64,000 nucleotides of DNA from Beijerinckiaceae bacterium (GTDB taxonomy: Bacteria; Pseudomonadota; Alphaproteobacteria; Rhizobiales; Beijerinckiaceae), in the NCBI GenBank assembly GCA_947474545.1, contig CANJJI010000002.1, positions 3,623 through 67,622 on the forward strand, read 5' to 3'. The translations under genes and the position numbers were made by a program. Positions 24,435-43,247 of the stretch are shown here, piece after piece. The notes below the pieces were generated by a model that was not told where the DNA came from, did no database searches, and saw only the letters and a program-made list of their open reading frames with translations. The number at the start of each line of letters is the position of its first letter. Position 1 is the first letter of the stretch.

Positions 24435-25406
24435 TCACTGCGGCACGATGCCCGCACCCTTGGCCGTCTTTTCCCAATAATTGAGCTGGGAATCGATCCA
24501 TTCGCGCATTTCCTGCGGGCTCGACCATTTCACGTCAACGCCGATCTTCTGCAGCCGTTCGGCCGCAGCAGGCGTCTTGAGATAGGCGACAATCGGCGCG
24601 TTAATTTTTTCGATGATGGCATCTGGTGTGCCGCCCGGCGCCAGAAGGCCCTGCCAGCCTACGAGATAAAAGCCCCTTGCTGTCTCAGCCACCGCCGGCA
24701 CATCAGGCAGACTTGGTAGACGTTGCGGCGTCAATATCCCAAGCGCCCTGATTTTACCGGCCTCAACCAGAGGGATTCCTGGCGCTAGATCGACAAACAT
24801 CATGTTGATCTCGCCGGACATGAGATCGGTCAAAGCGGGCGCAGCGCCGCGATAAGGCACGTGGCGCAAGGTGAAACCATTCTCCTTGGCAAAAACTTCG
24901 ACGCCCAAATGAGTCGGCGTGCCGATACCGGGCGAAGCATAATTCAAAGGTTGGGGGCTGCTCCTCGCCAGATCGATGAAGTCTTGCACAGTCTTCACTT
25001 TCAACTGCGGCGACACCACCATGATATTATAGGTATAGGCCATCAGGGTAACCGGCTTAAGATCGCGCCTCGTATCGTAAGGCACATTTTTCGACACAAA
25101 CGGCACGATGCCCAACGCTGTCGGCGCGAGCAGAAGAGTCTGGCCATCAGGGGCGGCCCGTGCGACGGATGTGTTGCCGATCACACCACCAGCGCCTGTG
25201 CGGTTCTCGACAATGACATTGGCCTTGTATTCATTCTGAAGAATTTCTGCCGCCAGCCGTCCAAGTATATCGGTCGTTCCCCCCGGCACAAATGGCACAA
25301 CGATCGTGACAGGCCCATTGGGCCATTGCTGCGCCTGTGCGGCCCCTGCCGCAATCGCAGAGCCCGCGAAAATTCCGGCAGCGAAAAGCCTTGCGAAAAT
25401 TGTCAT
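24435..25406 (-). CDS. Bug/TctC substrate-binding protein
   Basis: WPNGPVTIVVPFVPGGTTD, ENRTGAGG, YASPGIGT, VPYRGAAPA. Confidence 0.92.
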   Translation of the reverse strand: MTIFARLFAAGIFAGSAIAAGAAQAQQWPNGPVTIVVPFVPGGTTDILGRLAAEILQNEYKANVIVENRTGAGGVIGNTSVARAAPDGQTLLLAPTALGIVPFVSKNVPYDTRRDLKPVTLMAYTYNIMVVSPQLKVKTVQDFIDLARSSPQPLNYASPGIGTPTHLGVEVFAKENGFTLRHVPYRGAAPALTDLMSGEINMMFVDLAPGIPLVEAGKIRALGILTPQRLPSLPDVPAVAETARGFYLVGWQGLLAPGGTPDAIIEKINAPIVAYLKTPAAAERLQKIGVDVKWSSPQEMREWIDSQLNYWEKTAKGAGIVPQ

Positions 25407-25453
25407 GTTTCCCTCCCGTTTTTTATCTGGACAAAGCGCTCACCACTGGCCGG

Positions 25454-26431
25454 CTATTCCTGCCTGGGAATATTGGCGTCCTTGACCACGCGCGCGAACC
25501 GTTCTCGGTCGGCCCGCCAGACTTTTTCGAAGTCTTCTGGCGACGAGCCCACCGGCACAAGGTCCAGAGCCGCAAGACGGGATTTCATATCGGCAGATTC
25601 CAGTGCGCGGCGGCCCTCGGCCACAACACGATCAACAATCTCACCCGGCGTGCCGCGCGGTGCGAAAAGGCCCATCCAGCCCTGCAGATCGAAGTCTTTC
25701 ACACCTTGCTCTGCAAGAGTCGGCACCTCGGGCATGGTTGGCACACGTTGCAACGTGGAAACGCCAAGCGCCCGCACATTGCCTGATTCCATTTGCGGAC
25801 GTGCTGCCGGTGCAGGCACCACGGCCAGTTGCACGTCTCCGGTCAACATCGCCTGTAGCAACGGCGCATCTCCACGGAAAGGCACCATCACGATATCTGT
25901 GCCGGTCTCGCGCTTGAAGACTTCCATGGTCAGATGCAGCGAGTTTCCGATTCCCGATGAACCATAATTCAGCACGCCCGGCCTGGCCTTTGCCAGCGCC
26001 ACCAGCTCAGGTAAGGTCTTGACCTCCAGCTTGTTGCTGGAAATCAGCACGTTCGCCAGCGACACGAAATTGGTTACGCGGATAAAGTCCGCATCCGCAT
26101 CAAACGGCAGTTTGGCGTAAATGGAAGGCGAGATAGCCAGCCCGTTGACCGCGAAGAGGAAAGTATAGCCATCAGGCGGCGATTTCGCGACGGCGTCAGC
26201 CCCTGTATTACCACCCGCGCCAGCGCGGTTCTCGACGAGGACGGGTTGCTTCAACAGTTCCTGATATTTGGCGGCCATCAGCCGTGCCACGACATCTGTG
26301 GCTCCCCCCGGCGCGAAAGCCACAACCCATTTAATGGGCCGCGCGGGCCAATTGGCGGTCTGCGCCAGGGCTTGACTGGCGAATGTCGAAAAAGCGACGG
26401 CGGCAAGGGCTGCTGCTAGGCGAAGTCGCAT
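25454..26431 (-). CDS. Bug/TctC substrate-binding protein
   Basis: WPARPIKWVVAFAPGGATD, ENRAGAGG, PDGYTF, YGSSGIG. Confidence 0.92.
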   Translation of the reverse strand: MRLRLAAALAAVAFSTFASQALAQTANWPARPIKWVVAFAPGGATDVVARLMAAKYQELLKQPVLVENRAGAGGNTGADAVAKSPPDGYTFLFAVNGLAISPSIYAKLPFDADADFIRVTNFVSLANVLISSNKLEVKTLPELVALAKARPGVLNYGSSGIGNSLHLTMEVFKRETGTDIVMVPFRGDAPLLQAMLTGDVQLAVVPAPAARPQMESGNVRALGVSTLQRVPTMPEVPTLAEQGVKDFDLQGWMGLFAPRGTPGEIVDRVVAEGRRALESADMKSRLAALDLVPVGSSPEDFEKVWRADRERFARVVKDANIPRQE

Positions 26432-26894: not shown

Positions 26895-27995
26895 ATGAAC
26901 GAACACGTCCGCCCACCACAATCCAGCAACCGCCTTCGCGTCATCGATTGCGACATTCATCCGCGTATTGATTCGCCGCTGGAAATGAAGCCCTTTATGG
27001 CGTCGCGTGCCTGGGACCTCTGGCAGACTTTTGGCACCCGCAACCGCCATGGCTTCGCCAAGGGACACCCCTATCCCAAATCCCAGCCCGACAATGGCAT
27101 GCGCCGCGATGCCTACCCGCCAGACGGAACCATGGCCGGATCCAGCCTTTCCTTCATGCAGCAACAATTGCTCGACCCCTATGACGTGGAATTCGGAGTC
27201 ATGAACCCGCTCTCTCCAAGTGGTCAGGGCGAGATGAACCCCGAACTATCTGCGTCCCTCGCTTGTGCCTCCAACGAATGGCAACTGGAAAAATGGGCGC
27301 GTCCGGAACCGCGCCTTAAAGCCTCCATTGTCGTACCCTACGAAGACCCTGCCGCTGCCGTCGCGGAAATCCGGCGCCGCGCGGGCGACAAGCATTTCTG
27401 CCAGGTGCTCATGATGAGCCGCACCAACGAAGCGCTGGGCCGCAAGAAATACTGGCCCATCTATGAGGCAGCGGTAGAAGCGGGCTTGCCGATCGGGATC
27501 CATGTCTTCGGCTACAGCGGTTGGGCCTCCACCAGCACAGGCTGGTGCTCCTATTATGTGGAAGAAATGACCGAGCACGCAGCCTCCTGCTCAGCCATGG
27601 TTACGTCCATGATCATGGAAGGCCTGTTCGAACATCTGCCGGAATTGAAAGTCGTGGTGATTGAATCCGGCTTTGCCTGGATTCCCTCGCTAGGCTGGCG
27701 GCTCGATAAAAACTGGAAGCGCCTGAAACAGGAAGTCCCGCATCTGCGCAAGGCGCCCTCCGAATATCTGCGCAAGCACATCTGGGTGACCACACAGCCG
27801 ATGGAAGAATCCGAGCGCCCGCGCGATGTTATGGACAATATGGACTGGATCGGCTGGGACAAAATCCTCTTCGCCAGCGATTATCCCCATTGGGATTTTG
27901 ACGATCCCTATTACGCCATTCCCCCCGTCTTCGGAGAGGAAAAACGCCAGATGATCTTTAATGGCAATGCGAAAAAAGTGTTTAACTTCGGATGA
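26895..27995 (+). CDS. Amidohydrolase-2 TIM-barrel metalloprotein; candidate dinuclear oxygenase subunit
   Basis: IDCDIHP, IGIHVFG, VIESG, FASDYPHWDFD. Confidence 0.8.
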   Translation: MNEHVRPPQSSNRLRVIDCDIHPRIDSPLEMKPFMASRAWDLWQTFGTRNRHGFAKGHPYPKSQPDNGMRRDAYPPDGTMAGSSLSFMQQQLLDPYDVEFGVMNPLSPSGQGEMNPELSASLACASNEWQLEKWARPEPRLKASIVVPYEDPAAAVAEIRRRAGDKHFCQVLMMSRTNEALGRKKYWPIYEAAVEAGLPIGIHVFGYSGWASTSTGWCSYYVEEMTEHAASCSAMVTSMIMEGLFEHLPELKVVVIESGFAWIPSLGWRLDKNWKRLKQEVPHLRKAPSEYLRKHIWVTTQPMEESERPRDVMDNMDWIGWDKILFASDYPHWDFDDPYYAIPPVFGEEKRQMIFNGNAKKVFNFG

Positions 27996-28109: not shown

Positions 28110-28739
28110 TCACACCTTCCCGTAATCGGCAAATTTCTCAATCACCAGCTTCATCTCCGCAGCGCTGAGAATAACTGGCTTCAAGGCAGCCGCCAGAATA
28201 TCCAAATATTCGCTTGCCAGATTTTCCACCTCCTGCGCCAAGATCCAACCTGCTTCAAGCGAAGTCCCCAAAGCAATGACGCCATGATTAGCGAGCAGGC
28301 ACGCCTTGCGATCAGTTAGAGCCGCAACGGCATGATCAGCCAGTTCCTGCGTCCCGAAAGTGGCATAATCGGCACAGCGGATATCATGTCCGCCCGCAAT
28401 TGCGATCATGTAATGAAACGCCGGCAGTGCTTTTCGCGCGCAGGATAAAGCCGTCGCGCGCGGCGAATGATTGTGAATGATTGCACCAATTTCAGGCCGC
28501 GCGCGGTAAATCGAGGCGTGGAACCGCCATTCGGAAGACGGCCGGTGCTTGCCTTTCAGCACGTTTCCATCGAGATCGAGATGAACGAGATCGCCGGGTT
28601 TCAACCCGGCATAAGGCAGGCCAGCAGGTGTTACCAAGAATCCTTTGTCCGTGCGCTGCGAAACATTGCCGGACTTTGAAGGGGCAAAGCCGCGCCCGTC
28701 CATCGCGCAAGCGATGCGGATAATGTCTGCCGCGCTCAT
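28110..28739 (-). CDS. Class II aldolase (FucA-like), probable methylthioribulose-1-P/5-deoxyribulose-1-P aldolase of the DHAP shunt
   Basis: [33 protein letters not shown]; ATGA overlap with mtnA. Confidence 0.8.
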
Positions 28740-29818
28740 GCGGCTTGATCGGGAAAAAGGCTACGCAGCCCCTCGCCAGTCGCCGCGCATACGCCGCGTT
28801 CCGTAATGAACCCTGTAACAAGCCGTGCAGGCGTGACATCGAAAGCGGGATTTGCCGCGCTACTGCCCGGCGCGGCGATGCGGAAAGTCTCGATATGCCC
28901 CCCCTCTGTCATACCCGTCATATGCGTGACTTCGCGGCCATCCCGTTCCTCGATCGGAATCTCGTGCAAGCCATTCGCAATCGTCCAGTCGATCGTCGAT
29001 GATGGGAGCGCGACATAAAACGGCACACTATTGTCGCGCGCTGCAAGAGCTTTCAGATAGGTGCCGATCTTGTTGGCCACATCGCCATTGGCGGATACCC
29101 TGTCGGTGCCAACAATCACCAGATCAACTTGCCCCTGCTGCATGTAATGACCGCCGGCATTGTCCACAATGACAGTGTGCCGGACACCGTGGCCGCCCAA
29201 TTCAAACGCGGTCAGCGATGCGCCCTGATTGCGCGGACGGGTTTCATCAACCCATACGTGGATTTCGATGCCTTCATCATGAGCAAGATAGATGGGCGCG
29301 AGCGCCGTGCCATAGTCAACTGTCGCCAGCCAGCCTGCATTGCAATGGGTGAGTATATTGACTCGGCCCTTGCGCGCGGCAATTTCACGAATCAACGGCA
29401 GCCCATTGAGGCCGATGGCAGTGCACGTTTCGACATCCTCATCACAAATCCGTTGTGCCTCTAACGCTGCTGCCTCCGCCCGTGCATCCGGATCTAGGGG
29501 CCGCAGCACCCGCGCCACACGATCTAGCGCCCAGCGCAGATTGATCGCTGTTGGACGCGTGCCTGCAAGGTCACCTAAGGCTGTATCCAGCGCACTGTCC
29601 GATCCGTCCACGCACATGGCGAGCACCACGCCCCAGGCTGCGGTAGCTCCTATCAATGGTGCACCGCGCACAATCATGCTGCGGATAGCATGGGCAGCTT
29701 CATCGCTTGTGCGCAGCAGAACGGTCTCAAACGCAAACGGCAAGCGGGTCTGATCGATGACACGTACACCATCGGCATCAGGCCAGATCGTGCGATAATG
29801 CGTGCCGTTGATCTTCAT
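28736..29818 (-). CDS. mtnA: S-methyl-5-thioribose-1-phosphate isomerase
   Basis: [62 protein letters not shown]. Confidence 0.95.
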
Positions 29819-29821
29819 GAA

Positions 29822-30361
29822 CTAGTGCCCGTCAAAAGACATCAATGTTCTGACTGGTACGCCCAACGCTTCAATTTTCTTGGCCCCACCCAATTCTGGC
29901 AGATTGATCACGAAACAGGCCGCAACCACTTCCGCCCCGATGGATTGCAGCAATTTCACCGCCCCTTCAGCGGTGCCTCCCGTGGCGATAAGATCGTCCA
30001 CAAGGATAACGCGGTCGCCGTTAGCAACAGCATCGCTGTGCACTTCCATCTCATCCACGCCATATTCCAGCGAATAGGCTATGGAAACGGTCGTGTGCGG
30101 CAGCTTGCCCTTCTTGCGGATAGGAATGAAACCGGCGGACAATTGATGCGCTACGGCCCCACCCAGAATAAAACCCCGCGCTTCCATACCCGCCACCTTG
30201 TCGATCCGCCGGCCGGCCCAGGGCTGCACGAGTTCATCCACCGCGCGGCGAAACGCGCGGGGATTGCCAAGCAAGGTGGTGATGTCGCGAAACATGATTC
30301 CGGGCTTGGGATAGTCCGGAATGGTGCGAACAGTTTCTTCCAGTGACGTGAAATTTGGCAT
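29822..30361 (-). CDS. apt: Adenine phosphoribosyltransferase
   Basis: [41 protein letters not shown]. Confidence 0.96.
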
Positions 30362-30412: not shown

Positions 30413-31387
30413 TCATCCCTGCAGGACAAACAAATCGTCGATCTTCACCTTCTTCTCGATCAGGAACTGGTCTTCGAGATATTGGTTCACAGCATCAAGC
30501 GTAGGCCGGTTGACCTCGACGCCATAGGGCCAGGGATCGCCGCCAAACACATCATCGATTTCGTCAAGATCCGCTGTCATCCATGGCAGCATGTAGCGCA
30601 ATGCGCCGATGTAGCGCATCTTTTCCAGAGCGTGATCTTTGGATTTCACGCAGGCATCGTAGAGGCTCTTGGCGATGAACGGGTGCTTTTCATAGACATC
30701 CCGCCGAATGGCGATCAGATGCATGATCGGGAAAATCTTTTTGGTGCGATAAAGATTTTTCTCGACCTCGCGATAATCAGGAAAGAGCCTGACGATGTCC
30801 GGGTTAGTCTTGATGGCATTGGGCAACGTCGTGCCAATAATCGCAGAAATATCGCCGCTTTCCAGGAGGTCGCCCAAGGTCTTGCCATCGGGTTTTTTCT
30901 CGATGCGCACAGGTTTCACCAGTGGCATGATCGTCGGATTACCGTGCGAACCCTCGCCATTGATGGAGCCCTGCACCCAGGTGATGCCTGAGAGATCTAC
31001 ACCATAATCGCGTTGCAAATGACCCTTGATGAAGATCGCCGCCGTCATCGTGTAGAGCGGCACGCCAATGCGTTTGCCCTCAAGATCCTTGACCGATTTG
31101 ATATGCTTGCGATTGATGGTGATCATACCGTGACGGAACACACGCGATGGAAACACGGGTATGGCGACAAAGGTCCGGTCGCCCTGCGCATAACGCTGGA
31201 TGAATTCGGAACAGGAGAATTCGGAGGCATCGAAGGCATTTCCCCCCGCCATCCGGTCAAAAATCTCGCGCGGGGAATCCACACGCACAAAATCAAGATC
31301 GATGCCTTCGGGCTTCACGTCTCCGGTGTAGAGCGCCAGCATGCGGTCATAAAGACCTGTCGCAAACGAGAGTTTCAGATTAGCCAT
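30413..31387 (-). CDS. 4,5-dihydroxyphthalate decarboxylase-family protein
   Basis: YDRMLAL..G.VKPEGIDL, FDASEFS, AIPVFPSRVFRH, FPIMHLIAIR, DPWPYGV. Confidence 0.7.
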   Translation of the reverse strand: MANLKLSFATGLYDRMLALYTGDVKPEGIDLDFVRVDSPREIFDRMAGGNAFDASEFSCSEFIQRYAQGDRTFVAIPVFPSRVFRHGMITINRKHIKSVKDLEGKRIGVPLYTMTAAIFIKGHLQRDYGVDLSGITWVQGSINGEGSHGNPTIMPLVKPVRIEKKPDGKTLGDLLESGDISAIIGTTLPNAIKTNPDIVRLFPDYREVEKNLYRTKKIFPIMHLIAIRRDVYEKHPFIAKSLYDACVKSKDHALEKMRYIGALRYMLPWMTADLDEIDDVFGGDPWPYGVEVNRPTLDAVNQYLEDQFLIEKKVKIDDLFVLQG

Positions 31388-31404
31388 ATTTCCTCCAAGT
31401 GTTC

Positions 31405-32319
31405 TCAGCCGCCAGTTACGACAGGCGCGATGGATTTGACAATGGAGGCGTCCAGCGCCTCGTAATCGTGATAGCCTATGGTCTGATAAAGTTCGGCCCG
31501 CGTCATCATGCGCTGGACCATGCCATGCGTTCCGCCATCGCTGCGAATCGCGGCGTAGAGATCGCGCTGGGCCTTTGCCGCGACGCGCAGTGCGCTGACT
31601 GGCCAGATCACCATTTTGTAGCCCATGTCCTGAAATTCGCCGGCCTTAAAGAACGGCGTACGCCCGAACTCCGTCATATTGGCCAGTAGCGGCGCGTCGA
31701 TGGCCTTGGCAAAAGCCCTGAACATTTTTTCATCTGTCAAGGCCTCCGGAAAAATAGCGTCTGCTCCGGCAGCAAGATATCTTTTGGCCCGGGCAATCGC
31801 CCCGTCCATGCCCTCGCTGGCGGCTGCATCTGTACGGGCGATGATATAGAGATGACGGCGGGCGCGGCGGGCCGCAGCAATCTTGGCCGCCATATCATCC
31901 GCGCTGGCGAGCTTTTTGTCGTTGAGATGTCCGCATTTCTTCGGCAGCAGCTGGTCCTCGATATGAACCGCCGCCGCGCCCGCGTCCTCGAAGGCACGCA
32001 CCATATGCATCACGTTCAACGCCTCGCCATAACCGGTGTCGCCATCCACCAGCACGGGCAACCCGGATGAGCGCGCTACCTGCCGGATGAAGAAGCAGGC
32101 GTCTTCCACGGTAATGATGCCAAGATCCGGCAGGCCCATGGAAGCGCTCATGGCCGCGCCTGAGAGGTAGAGCGCCGAAAATCCCTCAGCCTTCGCTTGC
32201 GCCGCAGCAAGCCCATTATGGGCGCCCGGCATTTGCAGGATTTCCGGCTGCACCAAAAGTGTCCGAAACCGTTCACCTGCAGGTGTATCGCTCGAATTCT
32301 GTCCTTCCAGATAGGTCAT
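31405..32319 (-). CDS. prpB: Methylisocitrate lyase (ICL/PEP-mutase family)
   Basis: LYLSGAA, DGDTGYG, IEDQ..PKKCGH, ARTDA, ANMTEFG. Confidence 0.8.
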   Translation of the reverse strand: MTYLEGQNSSDTPAGERFRTLLVQPEILQMPGAHNGLAAAQAKAEGFSALYLSGAAMSASMGLPDLGIITVEDACFFIRQVARSSGLPVLVDGDTGYGEALNVMHMVRAFEDAGAAAVHIEDQLLPKKCGHLNDKKLASADDMAAKIAAARRARRHLYIIARTDAAASEGMDGAIARAKRYLAAGADAIFPEALTDEKMFRAFAKAIDAPLLANMTEFGRTPFFKAGEFQDMGYKMVIWPVSALRVAAKAQRDLYAAIRSDGGTHGMVQRMMTRAELYQTIGYHDYEALDASIVKSIAPVVTGG

Positions 32320-32428
32320 CGTCCGATCCCCTCCCAGCCTGCGCGAATTCGCAACTTGTCACGGGTGAGGCTGCAATGGCAATGTCTGCCGGAAAACACC
32401 CGGGACCGGGACCAACAGGGAGGCAGCG

Positions 32429-33406
32429 ATGCCGGACGATGCATCAAAGGTAACGCCAGAGGATTTCAACCGGGCGGCCAATATGGACGAGCTGTTCGGC
32501 TTGCTCGACAAGATCGGTGTGAACAATGGCTGGGCCAAGAAAACGCCCTCGCTCTGGCCACTGCCGAACAAGGATTTCGTACCAGCCCATTGGCGCTACA
32601 CTCAGGCCAAAGCCGCGCTCGACGCCGCCGGACGCTTCGTCAATACCGAGCTGGCCGAACGGCGCAATCTCATCATGTACAACCCCATCGAAGGCAATGA
32701 TTATGCGACGGTGAAGACGCTGATCTCGGCCTATCAGATGGTCAAGGCGGGCGAGACAGCAAAATCGCATCGCCATTCTGCCAATGCTCTGCGCCTCGTG
32801 CTCGATTCCAAGCCGGACATGTTCACCATCGTCGACGGCAAGAAAATTCCCATGGAGCCCGGCGACGTACTGCTGACGCCCAACTGGTCCTGGCATGCCC
32901 ATGCCAACGAGAGCATTGCCGACGCCTATTGGATGGATGTTCTCGACGTGCCAACAGTGCACCTGCTGGGCCCCATGTTTTTTGAACATCATCCCGACGG
33001 GATCGAAAAGGCCGAAGAGATCGCTGACGATACGCCCATGCGCTTCCCCTGGAAAGTGACACAGGCCCGCCTCGACGCAGCGCCGGATGCCGCGCCGGGC
33101 CGCCGCGAGATTTCACTCGAACCTTTCATGGACACCACTGCGCTTGAAGTCATCCGGCTCGAGGCCGGCGCTTCCATGCAGGTCGAACCCAGCACTTTGA
33201 GCGCGATCTACGCGATCATGGATGGGACTGGCACAGCCGTCATTGATGGCAAGAGTTTCGATTGGGCCCGTGGTGACGCCCTCGCCGTGCCCGCATCCAC
33301 GCAACACGTGTGGACTGCCAAGGAGCGCTGCCACCTGCTACGCGCCAGCGACCGGCCCTTGCTTCAAAAGCTGAACTGGCTGAAACCAGTCCCGGTGAGG
33401 GCATGA
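32429..33406 (+). CDS. Gentisate 1,2-dioxygenase-family cupin (ring-cleavage dioxygenase)
   Basis: AERRNLIM.NP, YQMVKAGE, SHRHS, TPNWSWHAH, WMDVLDVP; second cupin domain lacks the HxH motif. Confidence 0.8.
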   Translation: MPDDASKVTPEDFNRAANMDELFGLLDKIGVNNGWAKKTPSLWPLPNKDFVPAHWRYTQAKAALDAAGRFVNTELAERRNLIMYNPIEGNDYATVKTLISAYQMVKAGETAKSHRHSANALRLVLDSKPDMFTIVDGKKIPMEPGDVLLTPNWSWHAHANESIADAYWMDVLDVPTVHLLGPMFFEHHPDGIEKAEEIADDTPMRFPWKVTQARLDAAPDAAPGRREISLEPFMDTTALEVIRLEAGASMQVEPSTLSAIYAIMDGTGTAVIDGKSFDWARGDALAVPASTQHVWTAKERCHLLRASDRPLLQKLNWLKPVPVRA

Positions 33407-33500
33407 GATTGGAGCGCGAACCTCCCGGTCCGCAGTTGACAAAGTAAGTGCGGACCAGAAGTCCACTCACCAACAAATCACACAAGAGGAAACGCATCAT

Positions 33501-34256
33501 ATGACTGGCAAGGATCAATCTGCACTCGACAAAGTCATCGGCGAACTCGTCGCCGCCAATCGTATTCTCGGCAATGAAGGCGTGTGCGACGCTTACGGCC
33601 ACATCAGCCATCGCCATCCCCATGACCCCACGAAATTCCTGCTGTCGCGTTCGCGCAGCCCCGAACTCGTGGAGCCGGAGGACATCATGACCTTCGACTT
33701 TCAGGGCAATCCTCAGGATGGCCGTACCGATCCCATGTATTACGAACGCTTCATTCACTGCGGCATCTACGAAGCCAATCCGGACGTGAATTGTGTCGTC
33801 CATTCCCATGCACGCGGTGTGCTGGCGTTCACAATTTCAGATGTAAAGCTGGTGCCCGTTGTACACACCGGCGCCTCCTGCGGATGCGAAATGCCGGTCT
33901 GGGATATCGAAGACAAGTTCGGCGCAACCAATCTTCTGGTCGCCAATGTGGATCAGGGCCGCGATCTCGCCAAGACATTGGGCAAGAACCGCGTCGCGCT
34001 GATGCGCGGCCACGGCTTTGCCGCTGCAGGCCGGACGCTTTCCGAAGCTCTGCGCATCTCCATTTATCTACCCCAGAACGCACAAACGCAGATGGAAGCC
34101 ATGTTGCTGGGCGGCAGGTTCAAGGCGCTGACCGCAGGCGAGATGGAAGTGCGCGCGGCCGCAGGCCCCGATGGCAGCGACATCGCCCGCGCCATGCAAT
34201 ACTGGGCGCGCCGCGCCAATTGCGAGCATTTCCTGACCTACAAGAAGAGCGTGTAA
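33501..34256 (+). CDS. Class II aldolase/adducin-fold protein resembling 3-hydroxy-2-methylpyridine-4,5-dicarboxylate decarboxylase
   Basis: ANRILGNEG..DAYGHIS, YERFIH..IY...PDV..VVHSH, LMRGHG align by eye to the M. loti Mlr6791 sequence as recalled. Confidence 0.65.
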   Translation: MTGKDQSALDKVIGELVAANRILGNEGVCDAYGHISHRHPHDPTKFLLSRSRSPELVEPEDIMTFDFQGNPQDGRTDPMYYERFIHCGIYEANPDVNCVVHSHARGVLAFTISDVKLVPVVHTGASCGCEMPVWDIEDKFGATNLLVANVDQGRDLAKTLGKNRVALMRGHGFAAAGRTLSEALRISIYLPQNAQTQMEAMLLGGRFKALTAGEMEVRAAAGPDGSDIARAMQYWARRANCEHFLTYKKSV

Positions 34257-34313
34257 GAAAAAATGGTTGCTCTCTCTGTATGCTGGGAGAACAACCCTTA
34301 CCGATTGGATGCT

Positions 34314-35333
34314 ATGATGCCCAAACAGATATATTGCTCTTTTCTCGCTATAACTCTGCTGGCGGCATCAGGCGTCTCGTCCCATGCGCAATCTATAGCC
34401 GATTTTTATCGTGGCAAAACCGCCACGATGATGATCGGCGTTAGCGCAGGTGGCGAATATGATTTGCAGGCACGGCTGATCGCCCGGCATATCGGCAAGT
34501 ATATTCCCGGAAACCCCACGTTCATCGCGCAGAACATGACAGGTGCAGGCGGCATCATCATGGCCTCCCACCTTTATGGAATTGCGCCGCAGGACGGATC
34601 AGTCGTGGGCGTTATCCAAAACGGATTTCCGGCGATGCAGGCGATCGGCAAGCGCAAGGTCGCATTTGAATCGGCCAGATTTCACTGGATTGGCTCCATC
34701 AATTCCACCGTGGAAACCATGGCGCTGTGGAAGACCGCCGGTGCGAAAAATGTCGACGAAGCCCGGCAAAAGGAAATCCCCATTGGTTCGGTCGGCAACG
34801 CCAACATCACCTATGGCTTTCCGATGCTGATGAACGAATTCGCAGGCACGAAATTCAAGATGGTGATCGGCTATCGCGGCGGCAACGACATCAACCTCGC
34901 CATGGAGCGCGGTGAAGTCGGCGGCCGCAACAACACCTGGTCGAGCTGGAAATCAACCCGCAGCGATTGGCTGAAGAACAAGGATATCTATATCCTCGCC
35001 TATGGCGGACCAACCCCGCCCGACATCGGCGATGTCCCTTCGCTGGAAAGCCTCGCCAAAACTGAAGAAGAACGCATGGTCATGCGGCTTGTCCTATCCG
35101 GCACCAATTTCGGCCGCCCCATGGTCGTGCCACCTGGCGTGCCGATGGATCGGGTCACCGCCATTCGCAAGGCTTTTCTCGACATGACGAAAGACCCTGC
35201 TTTCATCAAGGAAGCCGAGACGATGAAAATAGACATCGATCCGCAACGCGGCGAGGACATGGAAAAGATCATCCGCGAAATCATGGCTTACCCCGACAGC
35301 GTCAAGGCGCGTGCAGCCGATTTTGTGGAATGA
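34314..35333 (+). CDS. Bug/TctC-family substrate-binding protein (divergent clade)
   Basis: AQSIADFYRGKT, GGEYD..AR, NMTGAGG, GYRGGND..LAMERGEV, GRPMVVPPGVP; start moved to MMPKQ. Confidence 0.85.
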   Translation: MMPKQIYCSFLAITLLAASGVSSHAQSIADFYRGKTATMMIGVSAGGEYDLQARLIARHIGKYIPGNPTFIAQNMTGAGGIIMASHLYGIAPQDGSVVGVIQNGFPAMQAIGKRKVAFESARFHWIGSINSTVETMALWKTAGAKNVDEARQKEIPIGSVGNANITYGFPMLMNEFAGTKFKMVIGYRGGNDINLAMERGEVGGRNNTWSSWKSTRSDWLKNKDIYILAYGGPTPPDIGDVPSLESLAKTEEERMVMRLVLSGTNFGRPMVVPPGVPMDRVTAIRKAFLDMTKDPAFIKEAETMKIDIDPQRGEDMEKIIREIMAYPDSVKARAADFVE

Positions 35334-35355
35334 CTTGAGAACTGGAACAAGAATC

Positions 35356-36303
35356 ATGAAAGTTGTCGTTTATGCGCAAGGCGTGCGCTCGGAAGTCGTC
35401 AATCTGATCACCGGCTCAGGTCAGGGCGATATTATAGCCGCCAAGGCAACGGAAATTGAAGCCGCTCTCGCCGATGCCGATGGTCTGGTGTTGCAGGATT
35501 TTGTGTGGACACCGGAACTTCTGGCGATCACACAGAAGTCGCCCAAGCTGAAATGGATCCAGCTGCTCACCTCGGGCTACGACCGTATGACGCAATATGG
35601 CGTGCCCAGGGACGTCACCATCTGTAATGCGCGCGGGGCATTTTCCCATTCGGTCGCAGTCCATGCCGTTGGCCTTTATCTCGCGCTGCTGCGCGGCGTG
35701 CCAACGATTCTGACCCAACAAAAAGAAAGTTCCTGGCAACGCGATTTCGCCAATGTTCTGGCCGTGCCCGCTGAATCCAGTGTCGTCATTCTCGGCTTTG
35801 GCTCGATTGGTCAGGAGATCGCCCGATTGCTGAAACCCTTTGGCCCTCACATTACAGGCGTCACCCGTTCCGGTGCGCCACATGCGCTCGCTGACAAGAT
35901 GGTCAGGGCGTCAGAGGCTCAAGGCGCGCTGCAAAATGCCGACGCCATCTTTCTCTCCATGCCACTGGACGGCGCAACGCGCCATGCCATCGGGACCGAA
36001 CAGCTCAAGAGCTACAAGCGCAACGCTGTACTGATTAACGTCGGCCGCGGCGGATTGTGGGATCAGAACGCGCTCGCACAGGGCCTGCATGACGGCCTGA
36101 TTGCAGGTGCGGCAACCGACGTCACTGATCCCGAACCATTGCCTGCAGATCACCCCCTCTGGACCGCGCCCAATTTTATCCTCTCTCCGCATGTATCGGG
36201 GGCATCGGGCGAAGTTGGCTACAAATCCCAGGCCGGTATCGCAATCGACAATATCGCGCGTTACCGGCGCGGCGAAAAACTCGAGAACATCGTCACCGTG
36301 TAG
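35356..36303 (+). CDS. D-2-hydroxyacid dehydrogenase-family protein
   Basis: LGFGSIG, INVGRG, TDVTDPEPLP, LSPHVSG; start moved to MKVVV. Confidence 0.88.
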   Translation: MKVVVYAQGVRSEVVNLITGSGQGDIIAAKATEIEAALADADGLVLQDFVWTPELLAITQKSPKLKWIQLLTSGYDRMTQYGVPRDVTICNARGAFSHSVAVHAVGLYLALLRGVPTILTQQKESSWQRDFANVLAVPAESSVVILGFGSIGQEIARLLKPFGPHITGVTRSGAPHALADKMVRASEAQGALQNADAIFLSMPLDGATRHAIGTEQLKSYKRNAVLINVGRGGLWDQNALAQGLHDGLIAGAATDVTDPEPLPADHPLWTAPNFILSPHVSGASGEVGYKSQAGIAIDNIARYRRGEKLENIVTV

Positions 36304-36312
36304 AGACTGATC

Positions 36313-37497
36313 ATGCGCATCGCCAAACTCGAAACCTTTCACGCAGATGGCGGCTGGCGCGTCTGGTCGTTCCTGAAAATCACAACGGACGACAGCCTCA
36401 CCGGCTGGTGCGAATATAATGAAGGCTTTGGCGCCGGCGGCGTAACCGAGCTCATCGCAAAATTTACGCCCATCGTCACAGGCATGGACCCGCGCGCAGT
36501 GGGCCGCATCTCCACACAGTTGCGCGCCCTCACAAGACTCGCAACCGGCGGGCTTAACCATCAGGCCATTGCCGCAATCGAAAACGCCTGCCTCGACATC
36601 AAGGGCAAGGCCGCCGGTGTCCCGGTTTATGCATTGTTCGGCGGGCCTTTTCGCGAAAAGCTGCCGGTCTATTGGTCCCATTGCGCGAGCTTCCGCGTAT
36701 GGCGGCGAGACTTCTTCGAGCAAAAGCTTGGAATGAAACCGATCCGCACGCTCGACGATGTCAAGGCGCTGGGGCGCGAAGCCGTTGAGCGCGGATTTAC
36801 CGCCATCAAGACCAACCCGCTCAATCTCTGGCCCCATTCAAAGTCATTCAATTCAGGCTTCCGCATGGCACCTGACATGCTGGAACGCCACCCCAGCGAT
36901 TTCGCTATTTCCGAAATGCGCGAAGTGCTCGCCGCTTTTCGCGAAGGCGTAGGGCCGCACACCGGCATCATGTTCGATCTCAACTTCAACCAGCGCCCCG
37001 AAGGGTTTTTGCGCATTGCCCGGGCGCTTGAAGAATACAATCTGCAATGGCTGGAAATTGATATTCACGATGCCGATGCATTGGGATATATCCGCTCACA
37101 GGTAAAAACTCCCATCGCCTCGCTTGAAGCCGTGCACGGCATGGCCGCCTATCGCCCCTTCTTTGAAAAGCGCGCTGTTGATGTCGCTGTTGTCGACGTG
37201 CCCTGGAATGGTCTTTGGGAATCGACACGCATCGCAACATTGGCGGACGCCTATGAAGTCGATTGCGCGCCTCATAATTTTTATGGCGACCTCGCCAGCA
37301 TTATGAGCGCCCATTTCTGCGCCGCCATTCCGAACTTCCGCATCATGGAGCTGGAAGTCGACGATGTCCCGTGGAAGAGCGAATTCGTATCAGTGCCACC
37401 AGTCGTGGAGAAAGGCCTGTTCCATGTGCCAACCGGCCCAGGCTGGGGCACGGATGTGAACGAAGAAGCTTTGAAGAAATACGTGGTGAAGAAATAG
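36313..37497 (+). CDS. Mandelate racemase/muconate lactonizing (enolase superfamily) enzyme
   Basis: KITTDD..TGW.E, ACLDIKGK..GVPVY.LFGG, IKTN, MFDLN, WLE, APHN, PTGPGWG. Confidence 0.88.
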   Translation: MRIAKLETFHADGGWRVWSFLKITTDDSLTGWCEYNEGFGAGGVTELIAKFTPIVTGMDPRAVGRISTQLRALTRLATGGLNHQAIAAIENACLDIKGKAAGVPVYALFGGPFREKLPVYWSHCASFRVWRRDFFEQKLGMKPIRTLDDVKALGREAVERGFTAIKTNPLNLWPHSKSFNSGFRMAPDMLERHPSDFAISEMREVLAAFREGVGPHTGIMFDLNFNQRPEGFLRIARALEEYNLQWLEIDIHDADALGYIRSQVKTPIASLEAVHGMAAYRPFFEKRAVDVAVVDVPWNGLWESTRIATLADAYEVDCAPHNFYGDLASIMSAHFCAAIPNFRIMELEVDDVPWKSEFVSVPPVVEKGLFHVPTGPGWGTDVNEEALKKYVVKK

Positions 37498-37537
37498 ATA
37501 GTCCTCAACTAAGAGGGCGGCACACCGGAGACAGATC

Positions 37538-38536
37538 ATGATCAAGCTGGGCCTCTGGACACCTCTGCCGCACACCATCAGGCCGGAGCCTGAGATTGAT
37601 CTTGCGCTCAGCGATCTGAAGACGCGGGGCCAGGGGCTCGCCCAGGACCGTTCATTTCAGTTTGCGCTGAAAGCTGTAAAAGAAGCGGAGGATATGGGCT
37701 TTGACATTACGCTTGTTGCAGAGCGGCTCGTTGCAGCAGACCTCGAAGCCTGGGTCGTTTCCTCCGCACTGGCTGTCCTGACAGCCAAAATCGAGATCAT
37801 GACAGCCGTTCATCCCGGCATCATCAATCCGCAACTGGCAGCGAAAATGGGTGCGTCGCTGGATCGTCTGACAGGCGGGCGTTTTGCGATCAACGTGGTG
37901 CCGGGCCGCCGCACGCATGAGTTCGATCTCTATGGCAACGGCGGCTGGGTCGAAAAGGGCCAGGATCACTACAAGCGTGTGGACGAATTCATCCGTGTCT
38001 TGAAATCCATGTGGACCGAAGATGATTTCTCGTTTGATGGTCAGTTTTATCACGCCACAAAAGGCTCGATGCTGACCAAATCAATACGCGAACCTCACCC
38101 TCCTATCTATGCGGCCAGCGGCGCAGATGAAGGGATGGAAATCATCGCCCGCGAATGCGCTCTCTGGTTTGTTTCATATGGCGACGGCATCGATGCGTAT
38201 GAAGAAAATGTCGCCCATATTGCGCGTGATATAACCATCATGAAAACTCGGGCAGCACGGTACGATCGCGATATAGGTTTTGGTATATCGACGCTGATCG
38301 CCTGTTCGGATGACCCATCAGCGCTAATCGAAGATGCCCGGCGGTTTGCGCAGGATCCCCTGCACAATGTGCCCATCAAGGCGCTAGGCGCGGGTCTAAT
38401 CGGAACGCCGCAGCTCATAGCGGACCGCATACGCCGCTATGAGGATATGGGGATGAGCTTGCTGATGCTGCAATTCCATCCGTTCATGGATGGACTGCGC
38501 ACCTTTGCCGACCGCGTCATGCCGCTTCTGAAATAG
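37538..38536 (+). CDS. LLM flavin-dependent monooxygenase (SsuD-like)
   Basis: EDMGFD, IMTAVHPG, GGRFAINVV, PHPPIYAA, LIGTP. Confidence 0.87.
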   Translation: MIKLGLWTPLPHTIRPEPEIDLALSDLKTRGQGLAQDRSFQFALKAVKEAEDMGFDITLVAERLVAADLEAWVVSSALAVLTAKIEIMTAVHPGIINPQLAAKMGASLDRLTGGRFAINVVPGRRTHEFDLYGNGGWVEKGQDHYKRVDEFIRVLKSMWTEDDFSFDGQFYHATKGSMLTKSIREPHPPIYAASGADEGMEIIARECALWFVSYGDGIDAYEENVAHIARDITIMKTRAARYDRDIGFGISTLIACSDDPSALIEDARRFAQDPLHNVPIKALGAGLIGTPQLIADRIRRYEDMGMSLLMLQFHPFMDGLRTFADRVMPLLK

Positions 38537-41797: not shown

Positions 41798-42208
41798 TCA
41801 AATTTCAAGGACAACGTAATCATTTTCAACAGTCACCGGAAACGTCTCTGCCACAAGCTCTTCCGCCAATTCGCCGCCGTGCTCCACATGCACATCGTAA
41901 AGCCGCACACGCATCTTTTGTGGATCGCATTGCGAACGGCCCGTGCGCACGTCAAATTCCCAGCCGTGCCAGGGGCAGCGGATAATCTCGCCATCGCGCG
42001 TCCATTCATAGGCCCCAGGCTCTTTGGCGATCACCAGGCCCGTCAGCTTGCCTGCGCAGAGCGAGCCGCCTTCATGCGGGCAGCGGTCATTCAGCGCAAA
42101 AAATTCGCCACGCACGTTGAACACGGTTATCTTGCGCTCTTCGGCTTCCACCAGTCGGCGTGTGCCCGGCGGAAAATCGGCGACGGCGGCTACCACATGT
42201 TTAGCCAT
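41798..42208 (-). CDS. Rieske [2Fe-2S] ferredoxin
   Basis: CPH...CPWHGWEFD; start moved to MAKHV, 5 nt after the amidohydrolase stop. Confidence 0.9.
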   Translation of the reverse strand: MAKHVVAAVADFPPGTRRLVEAEERKITVFNVRGEFFALNDRCPHEGGSLCAGKLTGLVIAKEPGAYEWTRDGEIIRCPWHGWEFDVRTGRSQCDPQKMRVRLYDVHVEHGGELAEELVAETFPVTVENDYVVLEI

Positions 42209-42212
42209 GGCG

Positions 42213-43247
42213 TCAGCCTCCCAGCCGTGAATAGGTGGCCAGCGGATTATCACGCATGATTTTTTTATGCAGCGCCGTGGGTATGCCCTTGGGCATGACA
42301 TCGTCGCCATCAAACTGCCAGTGCGGAAAATCCGATGCGTAAAGCAGGAAATCATCCGACTGGATCTGGTCGATGACTTTCTCGATCACCGACAAATCTT
42401 CCGGCCCGTCCAGCGGCTGCACGGTCATGCGCACATGATCGCGGATAATGTCCCCAGGCGGCCTGTCGATCCAGGGGACTTCACGCCGCACGCCGCGCCA
42501 GAATTTTGACAATCGCCAGATGAAACCAGGCAGCCATGTCACTCCGGATTCAATCAGCACTACTTTCAGGCTGGGAAACTTGACGAACACGCCTTCAGTC
42601 ACAAGGCTTGCGAGTTGCGCCTGAAATCCGAGCGATTGCGCGGAATAATCCTCCACATAATATGTGGTCCAGCCTAGCGACGTCACGGGATGGCGATAGG
42701 ACGAGCCAGCATGTATGCCGATGGGCAGCCCGTGCTTTTCCGCGGCTCGAAAAATCGGCCAGAACTGCCGCTTGCCCAACGGCGCTTCGCCATTGGCGAG
42801 CACCAGCACCTGAACAAACTGGCGATTGGGCGCGAGCCGCTCGATCTCATCCACGCAGGCCTCGATATCCTGCAACGGCAGGATGATCGAGGACGCAAGC
42901 CGCGCGTCCTTCGCCAGCCATTCCTGCGCAATCCAGTCGTTGAGCGCGCGGGTGAAGGCAATCGCCATATCGGTATTGTGAACAAGCTGGACGCCGTAAT
43001 TGCAATTAAGGATCGCGCGCTCCGCGCCCCATTTGTCAAACACCTGCGAGGTCAGGCCAGCAAAATCCAGCCCTGCCTTTTTCAGATCGGGCCGCGCGGT
43101 CAGCGGTGAGTTCGGCGGATAGGAAATGGATTCCAGCGAGGCAATGCCGCGATCGACAACCTGCTCCTGCCAATTGGCGTCCAGCCAGGGCATGAGGACT
43201 TTCGTCCCGGGAACAGCGGGATGAACGTCGCAATCAATAGGCTTCAA
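42213..43247 (-). CDS. Amidohydrolase-2 TIM-barrel protein; candidate partner subunit of a dinuclear oxygenase
   Basis: IDCDVHP, IGIHAG, LIESG, YASDFPHWQFD; TTG start with GGGGAG RBS. Confidence 0.8.
   Translation of the reverse strand: MKPIDCDVHPAVPGTKVLMPWLDANWQEQVVDRGIASLESISYPPNSPLTARPDLKKAGLDFAGLTSQVFDKWGAERAILNCNYGVQLVHNTDMAIAFTRALNDWIAQEWLAKDARLASSIILPLQDIEACVDEIERLAPNRQFVQVLVLANGEAPLGKRQFWPIFRAAEKHGLPIGIHAGSSYRHPVTSLGWTTYYVEDYSAQSLGFQAQLASLVTEGVFVKFPSLKVVLIESGVTWLPGFIWRLSKFWRGVRREVPWIDRPPGDIIRDHVRMTVQPLDGPEDLSVIEKVIDQIQSDDFLLYASDFPHWQFDGDDVMPKGIPTALHKKIMRDNPLATYSRLGG

Follow-up and report, generated by a model that had tools for sequence, protein, structure and literature searches.

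The gentisate 1,2-dioxygenases of the mhb, nag, and hbz clusters and the salicylate 1,2-dioxygenase of Pseudaminobacter salicylatoxidans (PDB 2phd, 3nst) have a bicupin fold in common. The o-phthalate decarboxylases PhtD/Pht5/OphC (PDB 9jp7) and PhtC (3,4-dihydroxyphthalate 2-decarboxylase; NCBIfam NF053537) represent two families that both take one carboxyl group off a hydroxylated ortho-dicarboxylate, and in the known phthalate routes the PhtD and PhtC types are alternatives, used by Gram-negative and Gram-positive bacteria, respectively. Mlr6791 is the 3-hydroxy-2-methylpyridine-4,5-dicarboxylate 4-decarboxylase of vitamin B6 degradation in Mesorhizobium loti, and the 2,3-dimethylmalate lyase of nicotinate fermentation is, like the methylcitrate-cycle enzyme PrpB, a lyase of the PrpB family. 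Here we describe a locus in which relatives of these enzymes are encoded side by side, at positions 30413-38536 of a 64,000-nucleotide stretch (hereafter, the window) of a Beijerinckiaceae bacterium (GenBank assembly GCA_947474545.1, contig CANJJI010000002.1, positions 3,623 to 67,622). We consider it a catabolic locus with divergent transcription, composed of two modules that are each conserved on their own. The first module most likely breaks down a hydroxylated di- or tricarboxylic acid with a benzene or pyridine ring, and we put the probability of this reading at about 0.55.

Eight open reading frames (ORFs) fill the interval exactly, from 30413-31387 on the minus strand to 37538-38536 on the plus strand (Table 1). 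Searches of the window ORFs against Pfam, NCBIfam, and PDB sequences bore out the identities that a preliminary description had proposed for all eight. Module 1 consists of a PrpB gene and, facing away from it, the genes for a bicupin, an Mlr6791-like decarboxylase of the adducin fold, and a periplasmic binding protein of the Bug type, plus a gene for a PhtD-like decarboxylase behind PrpB. The spacing between the plus-strand genes is small (-23 to 94 nt), which argues for co-transcription; a shared substrate is not thereby proven. No consensus sigma-70 promoter was found in the intergenic region at 32320-32428. The genome assembly is 4.8 Mb in size and 96% complete, and the related records are metagenome-assembled freshwater genomes of Hyphomicrobiales or Beijerinckiaceae-like bacteria. 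About 100 loci fetched for synteny (L-numbers) were compared in all.

The cupin, a bicupin of 325 residues with PDB relatives 3bu7, 2d40, and 3nst, has an HxH...H Fe(II) site with Gln/Arg/His/Asp contacts in its N-terminal barrel. H114, H116, and H156 align on the iron ligands of the salicylate/gentisate dioxygenase structures (3nst, 2d40, 3bu7), so that the N-terminal three-histidine site is the same, and Q103, R122, H158, and D170 align with the Gln, Arg, His, and Asp of those enzymes, at positions that we take, from salicylate dioxygenase work, to be substrate contacts. All seven residues are invariant across 10 aligned orthologues. The window cupin is, however, shorter than the gentisate/salicylate dioxygenases, and good alignment with them is confined to its N-terminal half. 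On the gentisate 1,2-dioxygenase model TIGR02272 it scored 168.6 bits against a curated cut-off of 442.1, and is thus not an equivalog, while two other ORFs in the genome exceeded this cut-off (464.6 and 450 bits). The preliminary description had held that its pathway would fall if the cupin were a plain gentisate dioxygenase with its downstream genes elsewhere; because two ORFs elsewhere pass the model, the cupin is not that enzyme of this genome. Its 1696 database relatives at E<=1e-50 bear generic names only, none of them specific. Judging from the conserved residues, its chemistry is most likely cleavage beside the carboxyl group of an ortho-hydroxy aromatic acid. Neither maleylpyruvate isomerase nor fumarylpyruvate (FAH) hydrolase, the enzymes of the canonical gentisate pathway, nor PrpC or PrpD is encoded at 24-43 kb of the window, as the preliminary description had noted.

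The PhtD-like protein matched the solved 4,5-dihydroxyphthalate decarboxylase 9jp7 over residues 2-320 (E 5.8e-58) and has no signal peptide, in keeping with a cytoplasmic location. In 13 loci its orthologues (58-76% identity) adjoin the cupin gene or the adducin-fold gene. Among solved enzymes, the adducin-fold protein is closest to Mlr6791 (2z7b; E 5.3e-47), a resemblance that had been predicted, and its metal-ligand motifs ER..IH, HxH, and GHG align with those of 2z7b; on the PhtC model NF053537 it reached only 77.6 bits against a cut-off of 200. The window thus has one gene for each of the two phthalate-type decarboxylase folds, which, unlike in the known phthalate pathways, occur here together, and neither a Rieske oxygenase large subunit nor a dihydrodiol dehydrogenase, the partners in phthalate 4,5-dioxygenation, is encoded at 24-43 kb. 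Gene families of the vitamin B6 pathway of M. loti are likewise missing from these neighbours. The genome encodes at least eight Mlr6791-like, at least nine PhtD-like, and at least nine divergent Bug-like paralogues, and because there are so many Mlr6791-like proteins, it is unlikely that the adducin-fold protein has the same substrate as Mlr6791. Adducin-fold and PhtD-like genes neighbour each other in several distinct settings. One of these is on another contig of the same genome (C24; L107:5100-10300), where genes for a molybdenum hydroxylase large subunit, for PhtD-like (52%) and Mlr6791-like (50%) proteins, and for a divergent Bug-like protein (36%) stand in a row without a cupin; the two decarboxylases are therefore found in one unit with a molybdenum hydroxylase, too.

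PrpB scored 417 bits on the prpB equivalog model TIGR02317 (cut-off 354.4), is the only ORF in the genome above this cut-off, and has the motifs KKCGH (catalytic K-K/R-C-G-H) and DGDTGYG. In a search of 300 genomes of the same order, from which 20 loci were fetched and mapped, it was 68-74% identical to the lyases of prpD-prpC-prpB operons: 11 of the 15 relatives in this range have PrpD and/or a citrate synthase within 4 kb (both in 10), and none lies near a cupin. Maximum-likelihood analysis grouped the operon-linked PrpBs in a clade (starred; 100/99) and placed the seven cupin-linked PrpBs just outside it, on short branches. The "prpB-like" gene of the preliminary description thus turns out to encode a close relative of true methylisocitrate lyases, and we rejected a distant family member with new chemistry on the strength of the short branches. 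PrpD was looked for in the 96%-complete genome and not found, the best score being 62 bits where 458 are required; PrpF had no match, and PrpC was not found either, the sole citrate synthase scoring 325.7 bits against 421.3 on the type II model. Since PrpC, PrpD, and PrpF are all missing, the methylcitrate cycle is not evident in this genome and PrpB appears to have been recruited, which agrees with the earlier suggestion that it works outside that cycle. Its gene is paired divergently with that of the ring-cleaving cupin in seven loci, including two without the enolase of module 2 (L032, L033). PrpB thus appears to be of the true methylisocitrate-lyase lineage, recruited beside the cupin, and its chemistry is probably little changed, namely retro-aldol cleavage to pyruvate and a dicarboxylate; like the 2,3-dimethylmalate lyase, it would then end a ring-degradation pathway. 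A separate observation concerns four genomes of one genus of the same order (G032, G135, G176, G213), in all of which the PrpB match (63-64% identity) has one in-frame TAA inside; the codon may mark a break shared by these genomes, or be an artefact of the match start.

The Bug-like protein has the signal peptide MMPKQIYCSFLAITLLAASGVSSHAQS, and the true start of its gene is probably near 34314, ahead of this peptide. It matched Bug27 (2dvz; 2.6e-6), TphC (8hka; 4.6e-6), AdpC, and a TctC weakly (E-values up to 9e-3), and had no match to Pfam TctC (PF03401) at E<=1e-3 or to any other Pfam family. Because of the signal peptide, the missing Pfam match, and the weak similarity to Bug27, TphC, and AdpC, we class it as a divergent member. 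Orthologues with 54-79% identity occur in six loci (L025, L026, L029, L032, L033, L066). The seven TctA genes of the genome all lie outside the window; orphan binding-protein genes are usual for Bug proteins. The divergent Bug-like copies of the genome, which the Pfam TctC model misses at E 1e-3, represent a lineage-specific expansion in an alphaproteobacterium. Two standard TctC-family genes are located just upstream of the cluster (24435-26431).

For the synteny of the cupin, an alignment of ten orthologues led to 80 loci from species-representative genomes, on which 33 query proteins were mapped by tblastn, and neighbours up to 6 kb from the cupin were counted wherever a locus extended for 4 kb or more to each side. 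These loci are mutually related, and the counts describe a pattern, with no statistical test attached. The window order AibH2-like gene, PhtD-like gene, PrpB / cupin, adducin-fold, Bug-like, dehydrogenase, and enolase genes recurs whole or in part in L025, L026, L027, L029, and L066, at about 65-85% cupin identity, and because of this recurrence the arrangement is not due to chance. In L032 and L033, the latter from the cultured Terripilifer ovatus H3SJ34-1, PrpB is divergent from the cupin and accompanied by the adducin-fold, Bug-like, and PhtD-like genes, and in L033 also by a flavin adenine dinucleotide (FAD) monooxygenase. A second arrangement comprises the L, S, and M subunits of a molybdenum hydroxylase, the cupin, a 540-residue FAD monooxygenase, and the adducin-fold and PhtD-like proteins (L028, L031, L034, L036, L039; L035 stops just past the cupin). 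In a third, a thiamine-diphosphate enzyme is divergent from the cupin/adducin-fold pair; it belongs to NCBIfam PRK08266 ("hypothetical protein"; 647 bits; L038, L040, L045, L046, L051-L055, L057), and beside it there is often a distant gene of the PEP-mutase/ICL family, about 30% identical to PrpB. The large subunit of a molybdenum hydroxylase in the window itself (46181-48520) was tried as the counterpart of the relatives' hydroxylase and rejected, the best match in the genome being on contig C73 (59%) and the window subunit falling outside the top nine.

The usual set in Burkholderiales (42-55% cupin identity) is an FAD monooxygenase, an FAH hydrolase, the cupin, and a Bug protein, sometimes with Bug, adducin-fold, and PhtD-like genes upstream, and in some loci a PrpD-family protein follows the cupin directly. 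Among 26 alphaproteobacterial loci, the adducin-fold gene was counted in 16, the molybdenum hydroxylase in 11, the FAD monooxygenase in 9, the PhtD-like gene in 8, and FAH in none, and among 29 betaproteobacterial (Burkholderiales) loci the numbers were 27 for FAH, 25 for the FAD monooxygenase, 24 for Bug, 7 for a PrpD-like protein, and 3 each for the adducin-fold and PhtD-like genes. The Burkholderiales orthologues thus resemble gentisate clusters in being accompanied by an FAD monooxygenase and an FAH hydrolase, whereas this monooxygenase is of the PRK06126 type (named "hypothetical protein" in NCBIfam) and the two decarboxylases, the molybdenum hydroxylases, and PrpB are extra partners. The cluster of PRK06126-type monooxygenase, FAH, cupin, and Bug genes is widespread in this order (L065-L104, e.g., L072 from Advenella kashmirensis W13003 and L079 from Hydrogenophaga laconesensis), often with a GntR regulator, and is apparently uncharacterised. 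On the whole, the claim of a pathway for a (hetero)aromatic carboxylate stood insofar as the cupin, Mlr6791-like, and PhtD-like genes travel together in alpha- and betaproteobacteria, often beside a molybdenum hydroxylase, a large FAD monooxygenase, and a Bug protein; the dehydrogenase, the enolase, and possibly the luciferase-like flavin monooxygenase (LLM), which had been counted in, belong to a second module.

The two-subunit AibH1H2 with AibG, a three-component Mn/Fe monooxygenase of Rhodococcus wratislaviensis (PMC7782822, PMC10401708), and the amidohydrolase-related dinuclear oxygenases (PMC10811679) are the closest systems to module 2, AibH2 being the catalytic subunit of an Mn/Fe aliphatic C-H hydroxylase (PMC7782822, PMC10401708, PMC10811679). 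The window likewise encodes two Amidohydro_2 subunits and a small Rieske ferredoxin, and its predicted AibH2-like catalytic subunit (26895-27995) matched 6m1w_B at E 7.2e-81. The partners here are, in contrast to the genes of the Aib pathway, an enolase-superfamily protein (2oo6; E 1.6e-101), a 2-hydroxyacid dehydrogenase, and Bug proteins. Enolase orthologues (62-67% identity) are located beside two Amidohydro_2 genes and a small Rieske gene, with no cupin, in three of four contig places (L110-L112), and dehydrogenase relatives (39-40%) adjoin them in two of these three (L111, L112). By tblastn, the neighbours are orthologues, at 49-63%, of the window proteins of 26895-27995 (49-61%), 42213-43247, and 41798-42355 (53-63% for the latter two). 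Because the enolase orthologues keep this company elsewhere without a cupin, we assign the dehydrogenase and the enolase to an AibH1H2-type oxygenase module; the dehydration step on the ring-cleavage product that the preliminary description had envisaged is thereby left unsupported. Both oxygenase subunits and the Rieske gene are contiguous in L110-L112, whereas the subunit genes are 14 kb apart in the window. The oxygenase genes bracket module 1 in the window and in L025, and the AibH2-like gene abuts the PhtD-like gene in L026, L027, and L029. Only L025 retains the LLM, although a 63% relative lies near L033, and by its position the LLM may belong to module 2. Contig C107 of the same genome (L105:15-9187) encodes a pyrogallol-transhydroxylase-like molybdopterin enzyme (large and small subunits), followed by the ORF that reached 450 bits on TIGR02272 and then by a 47% paralogue of the window enolase, a binding protein, and an ADP-forming coenzyme A ligase. 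This order hints that the enolase group and ring-cleavage products may be connected.

Table 1. Features of the locus and its surroundings (window positions), with module assignment and supporting match or source.
Feature	Position	Strand	Module	Match or source
PhtD-like (4,5-dihydroxyphthalate decarboxylase family) decarboxylase, cytoplasmic	30413-31387	-	1	PDB 9jp7
PrpB-type 2-methylisocitrate lyase, divergent from cupin	31405-32319	-	1	TIGR02317
Divergent prpB/cupin intergenic region, 109 bp, presumed shared control region	32320-32428	.		Read directly
Gentisate/salicylate 1,2-dioxygenase-like Fe(II) bicupin	32429-33406	+	1 (anchor)	
Mlr6791 (HMPDdc)-like class II aldolase-fold (adducin-fold) decarboxylase	33501-34256	+	1	PDB 2z7b
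Divergent Bug/TctC-like periplasmic binding protein	34263-35333	+	1	Signal peptide; weak PDB matches
D-isomer-specific 2-hydroxyacid dehydrogenase	35311-36303	+	2	PF02826, 1.2e-48
Enolase-superfamily protein, acid-sugar dehydratase-like subgroup	36313-37497	+	2	PDB 2oo6
SsuD/SfnG-like LLM, ends plus-strand run	37538-38536	+		PF00296, 1.2e-46; PDB 3rao, 4.8e-45
AibH2-like catalytic subunit, amidohydrolase-related dinuclear oxygenase	26895-27995	+	2 (outside 30413-38536)	6m1w_B
Rieske ferredoxin	41798-42355	-	2 (outside 30413-38536)	Pfam Rieske
AibH1-like subunit	42213-43247	-	2 (outside 30413-38536)	Pfam Amidohydro_2
apt-mtnA-aldolase trio (dihydroxyacetone phosphate (DHAP)-shunt type)	28110-30361	-		Pfam Pribosyltran, IF-2B, Aldolase_II

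Module 1 looks like a gentisate-like pathway for a hydroxylated (hetero)aromatic polycarboxylate. The Bug-like protein would hand the acid to one of the seven TctA-type transporters of the genome. The PhtD-like enzyme would then take off a carboxyl group para to a ring hydroxyl and the Mlr6791-like metal enzyme one ortho to a hydroxyl, the two acting one after the other on a tricarboxylate or each on a different isomer, and a salicylate- or gentisate-type acid would be left. The Fe(II) bicupin would open the ring of this acid between the carboxyl-bearing and the hydroxyl-bearing carbons, and the recruited PrpB would cleave a 2-methylisocitrate-like product by retro-aldol reaction to pyruvate and a dicarboxylate, a final C-C cleavage for which Burkholderiales would use the FAH hydrolase in place of PrpB. 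Module 2 may hydroxylate an aliphatic C-H bond with its AibH1H2-type oxygenase and Rieske protein and process the resulting hydroxy acid with the dehydrogenase and the enolase-type dehydratase, either modifying part of the same substrate (a side chain or a fragment) or serving a neighbouring pathway. As to the ring, the molybdenum hydroxylase partners would favour an N-heteroaromatic substrate in some lineages, and the order of FAD monooxygenase, FAH, and cupin would favour a benzenoid, gentisate-like one. Another ending can be drawn, in which an aerobic route keeps the ortho-dicarboxylate skeleton of a C7 (aza)phthalate-type acid (e.g., pyridine-2,3- or -3,4-dicarboxylate) and arrives at a 2-methylisocitrate-like tricarboxylate that PrpB splits into pyruvate and succinate, with the AibH-type oxygenase, the 2-hydroxyacid dehydrogenase, and the enolase-type dehydratase replacing PrpC, PrpD, and aconitase. 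If true, this would be a methylcitrate-cycle ending without a methylcitrate cycle; we consider it improbable.

Several observations weigh against our reading of the locus as a polycarboxylate pathway with PrpB at its end. The cupin subfamily has no experimentally characterised member, and there is no chemically simple route from a gentisate-type cleavage product to 2-methylisocitrate. Double decarboxylation of a dicarboxylate would strip the very carboxylate that Arg122 of the cupin presumably binds. The window is without the FAD monooxygenase and the FAH hydrolase that accompany the cupin elsewhere, so that the pathway is either incomplete or different here. The full eight-gene order was found only in close relatives, which are not mutually independent, and with so many Mlr6791-like and PhtD-like paralogues in the genome, some of the linkage could be general clustering of catabolic genes. 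Scanning 27.9-40.3 kb for promoters and terminators yielded no excess of sites over shuffled controls and did not define the operon ends. A rival view is that the stretch is a catabolic island in which the cupin/adducin-fold pair, the PhtD-like protein, PrpB, and the dehydrogenase-enolase-LLM set serve different substrates and have only come to lie side by side in this lineage. Enolase orthologues are indeed found without a cupin, PrpB orthologues at 65-75% identity also occur without one, mostly in prp operons, adducin-fold or PhtD-like genes are rare beside Burkholderiales cupins (3 of 29), and a DHAP-shunt operon lies within the stretch. We nevertheless hold mere juxtaposition to be unlikely, if worth keeping in mind, since PrpB, cupin, adducin-fold, Bug, and PhtD-like genes stay linked despite rearrangement in seven loci with varied accessory genes, the plus-strand genes overlap or nearly touch, and the catalytic oxygenase subunit abuts the PhtD-like gene in three relatives.

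A rather unlikely explanation, in our opinion, is an ordinary hydroxyphthalate/3-hydroxybenzoate/gentisate pathway, in which the decarboxylases turn 4- and 3-hydroxyphthalate into 3-hydroxybenzoate, and gentisate is then made by a hydroxylase whose gene lies elsewhere. The cupin would be nothing more than a gentisate 1,2-dioxygenase of divergent sequence, and the hydrolase genes, too, would lie elsewhere. The cupin's active-site residues do match those of gentisate/salicylate dioxygenases, the Burkholderiales gene order is typical of gentisate clusters, and the genome has FAH and PRK06126-type monooxygenase paralogues elsewhere. The cupin, however, scored far below the gentisate dioxygenase cut-off that two other ORFs of the genome pass, and the associated PRK06126-type monooxygenase has 540 residues, where the known 3-hydroxybenzoate 6-hydroxylases have about 400; moreover, the XDH-family molybdenum hydroxylases beside the cupin in 11 of 26 alphaproteobacterial loci better fit an N-heteroaromatic substrate, and PrpB is left unexplained. 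For PrpB taken by itself, a housekeeping methylisocitrate lyase for propionate, unrelated to its neighbours, would explain why it passes the equivalog model and lies on a short branch beside operon-encoded PrpBs; in a 96%-complete genome without PrpD or PrpF, whose sole citrate synthase is below the type II cut-off, and with the divergent pairing with the cupin kept in seven loci, we find this very improbable. The near-exclusive occurrence of FAH (none in alphaproteobacterial, 27 in betaproteobacterial loci) and of the adducin-fold gene (16 and 3) would suggest that the adducin-fold protein is a metal-dependent decarboxylase or aldolase that acts on the ring-fission product in place of the FAH hydrolase. 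This exclusivity is weak evidence because it follows phylogeny, and the closest characterised relative of the protein is an aromatic decarboxylase. Two loci (L087, L094) carry both genes, and a paralogous cluster on contig C12 of the same genome (L106:5400-12000) has an FAD monooxygenase, a cupin (26%), FAH, and an Mlr6791-like protein (40%) in a row, so that FAH and an adducin-fold protein can share a cluster; a replacement of FAH is accordingly a poor prospect.

The literature searched on pyridine dicarboxylates, quinolinate, hydroxyphthalate, hydroxyisophthalate, and PhtD yielded no description of a pathway with these genes. The dipicolinate dip cluster was considered as a match and rejected, because it starts with a monooxygenase and does not need the molybdenum cofactor. 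The locus is not categorically new, since for each protein the fold is known and a reaction class can plausibly be named; the novelty is in the combination of both phthalate-type decarboxylase folds with a divergent gentisate-dioxygenase-like anchor, a PrpB recruited without PrpC or PrpD, and a link to an AibH-type oxygenase. The cupin subfamily is common in Hyphomicrobiales and Burkholderiales of freshwater and humic lakes, where it accompanies enzyme families of phthalate, vitamin B6, and N-heterocycle breakdown. The identity of its substrate would at once assign a function to several large families without names, namely the PRK06126 monooxygenases, the swarms of PhtD-like and Mlr6791-like paralogues, and the divergent Bug proteins, and could shed light on the bacterial use of carboxyl-rich aromatic matter in natural waters. 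The recruited PrpB and the AibH-type oxygenase link are testable leads.

The minus-strand run extends, downstream from the PhtD-like gene, into the apt-mtnA-aldolase trio. This trio is located between the PhtD-like and AibH2-like genes in the window and in L025, and because it is missing at that position in L026, L027, and L029, we regard it as a separate unit outside the pathway, one that looks like an insertion into the catabolic locus.

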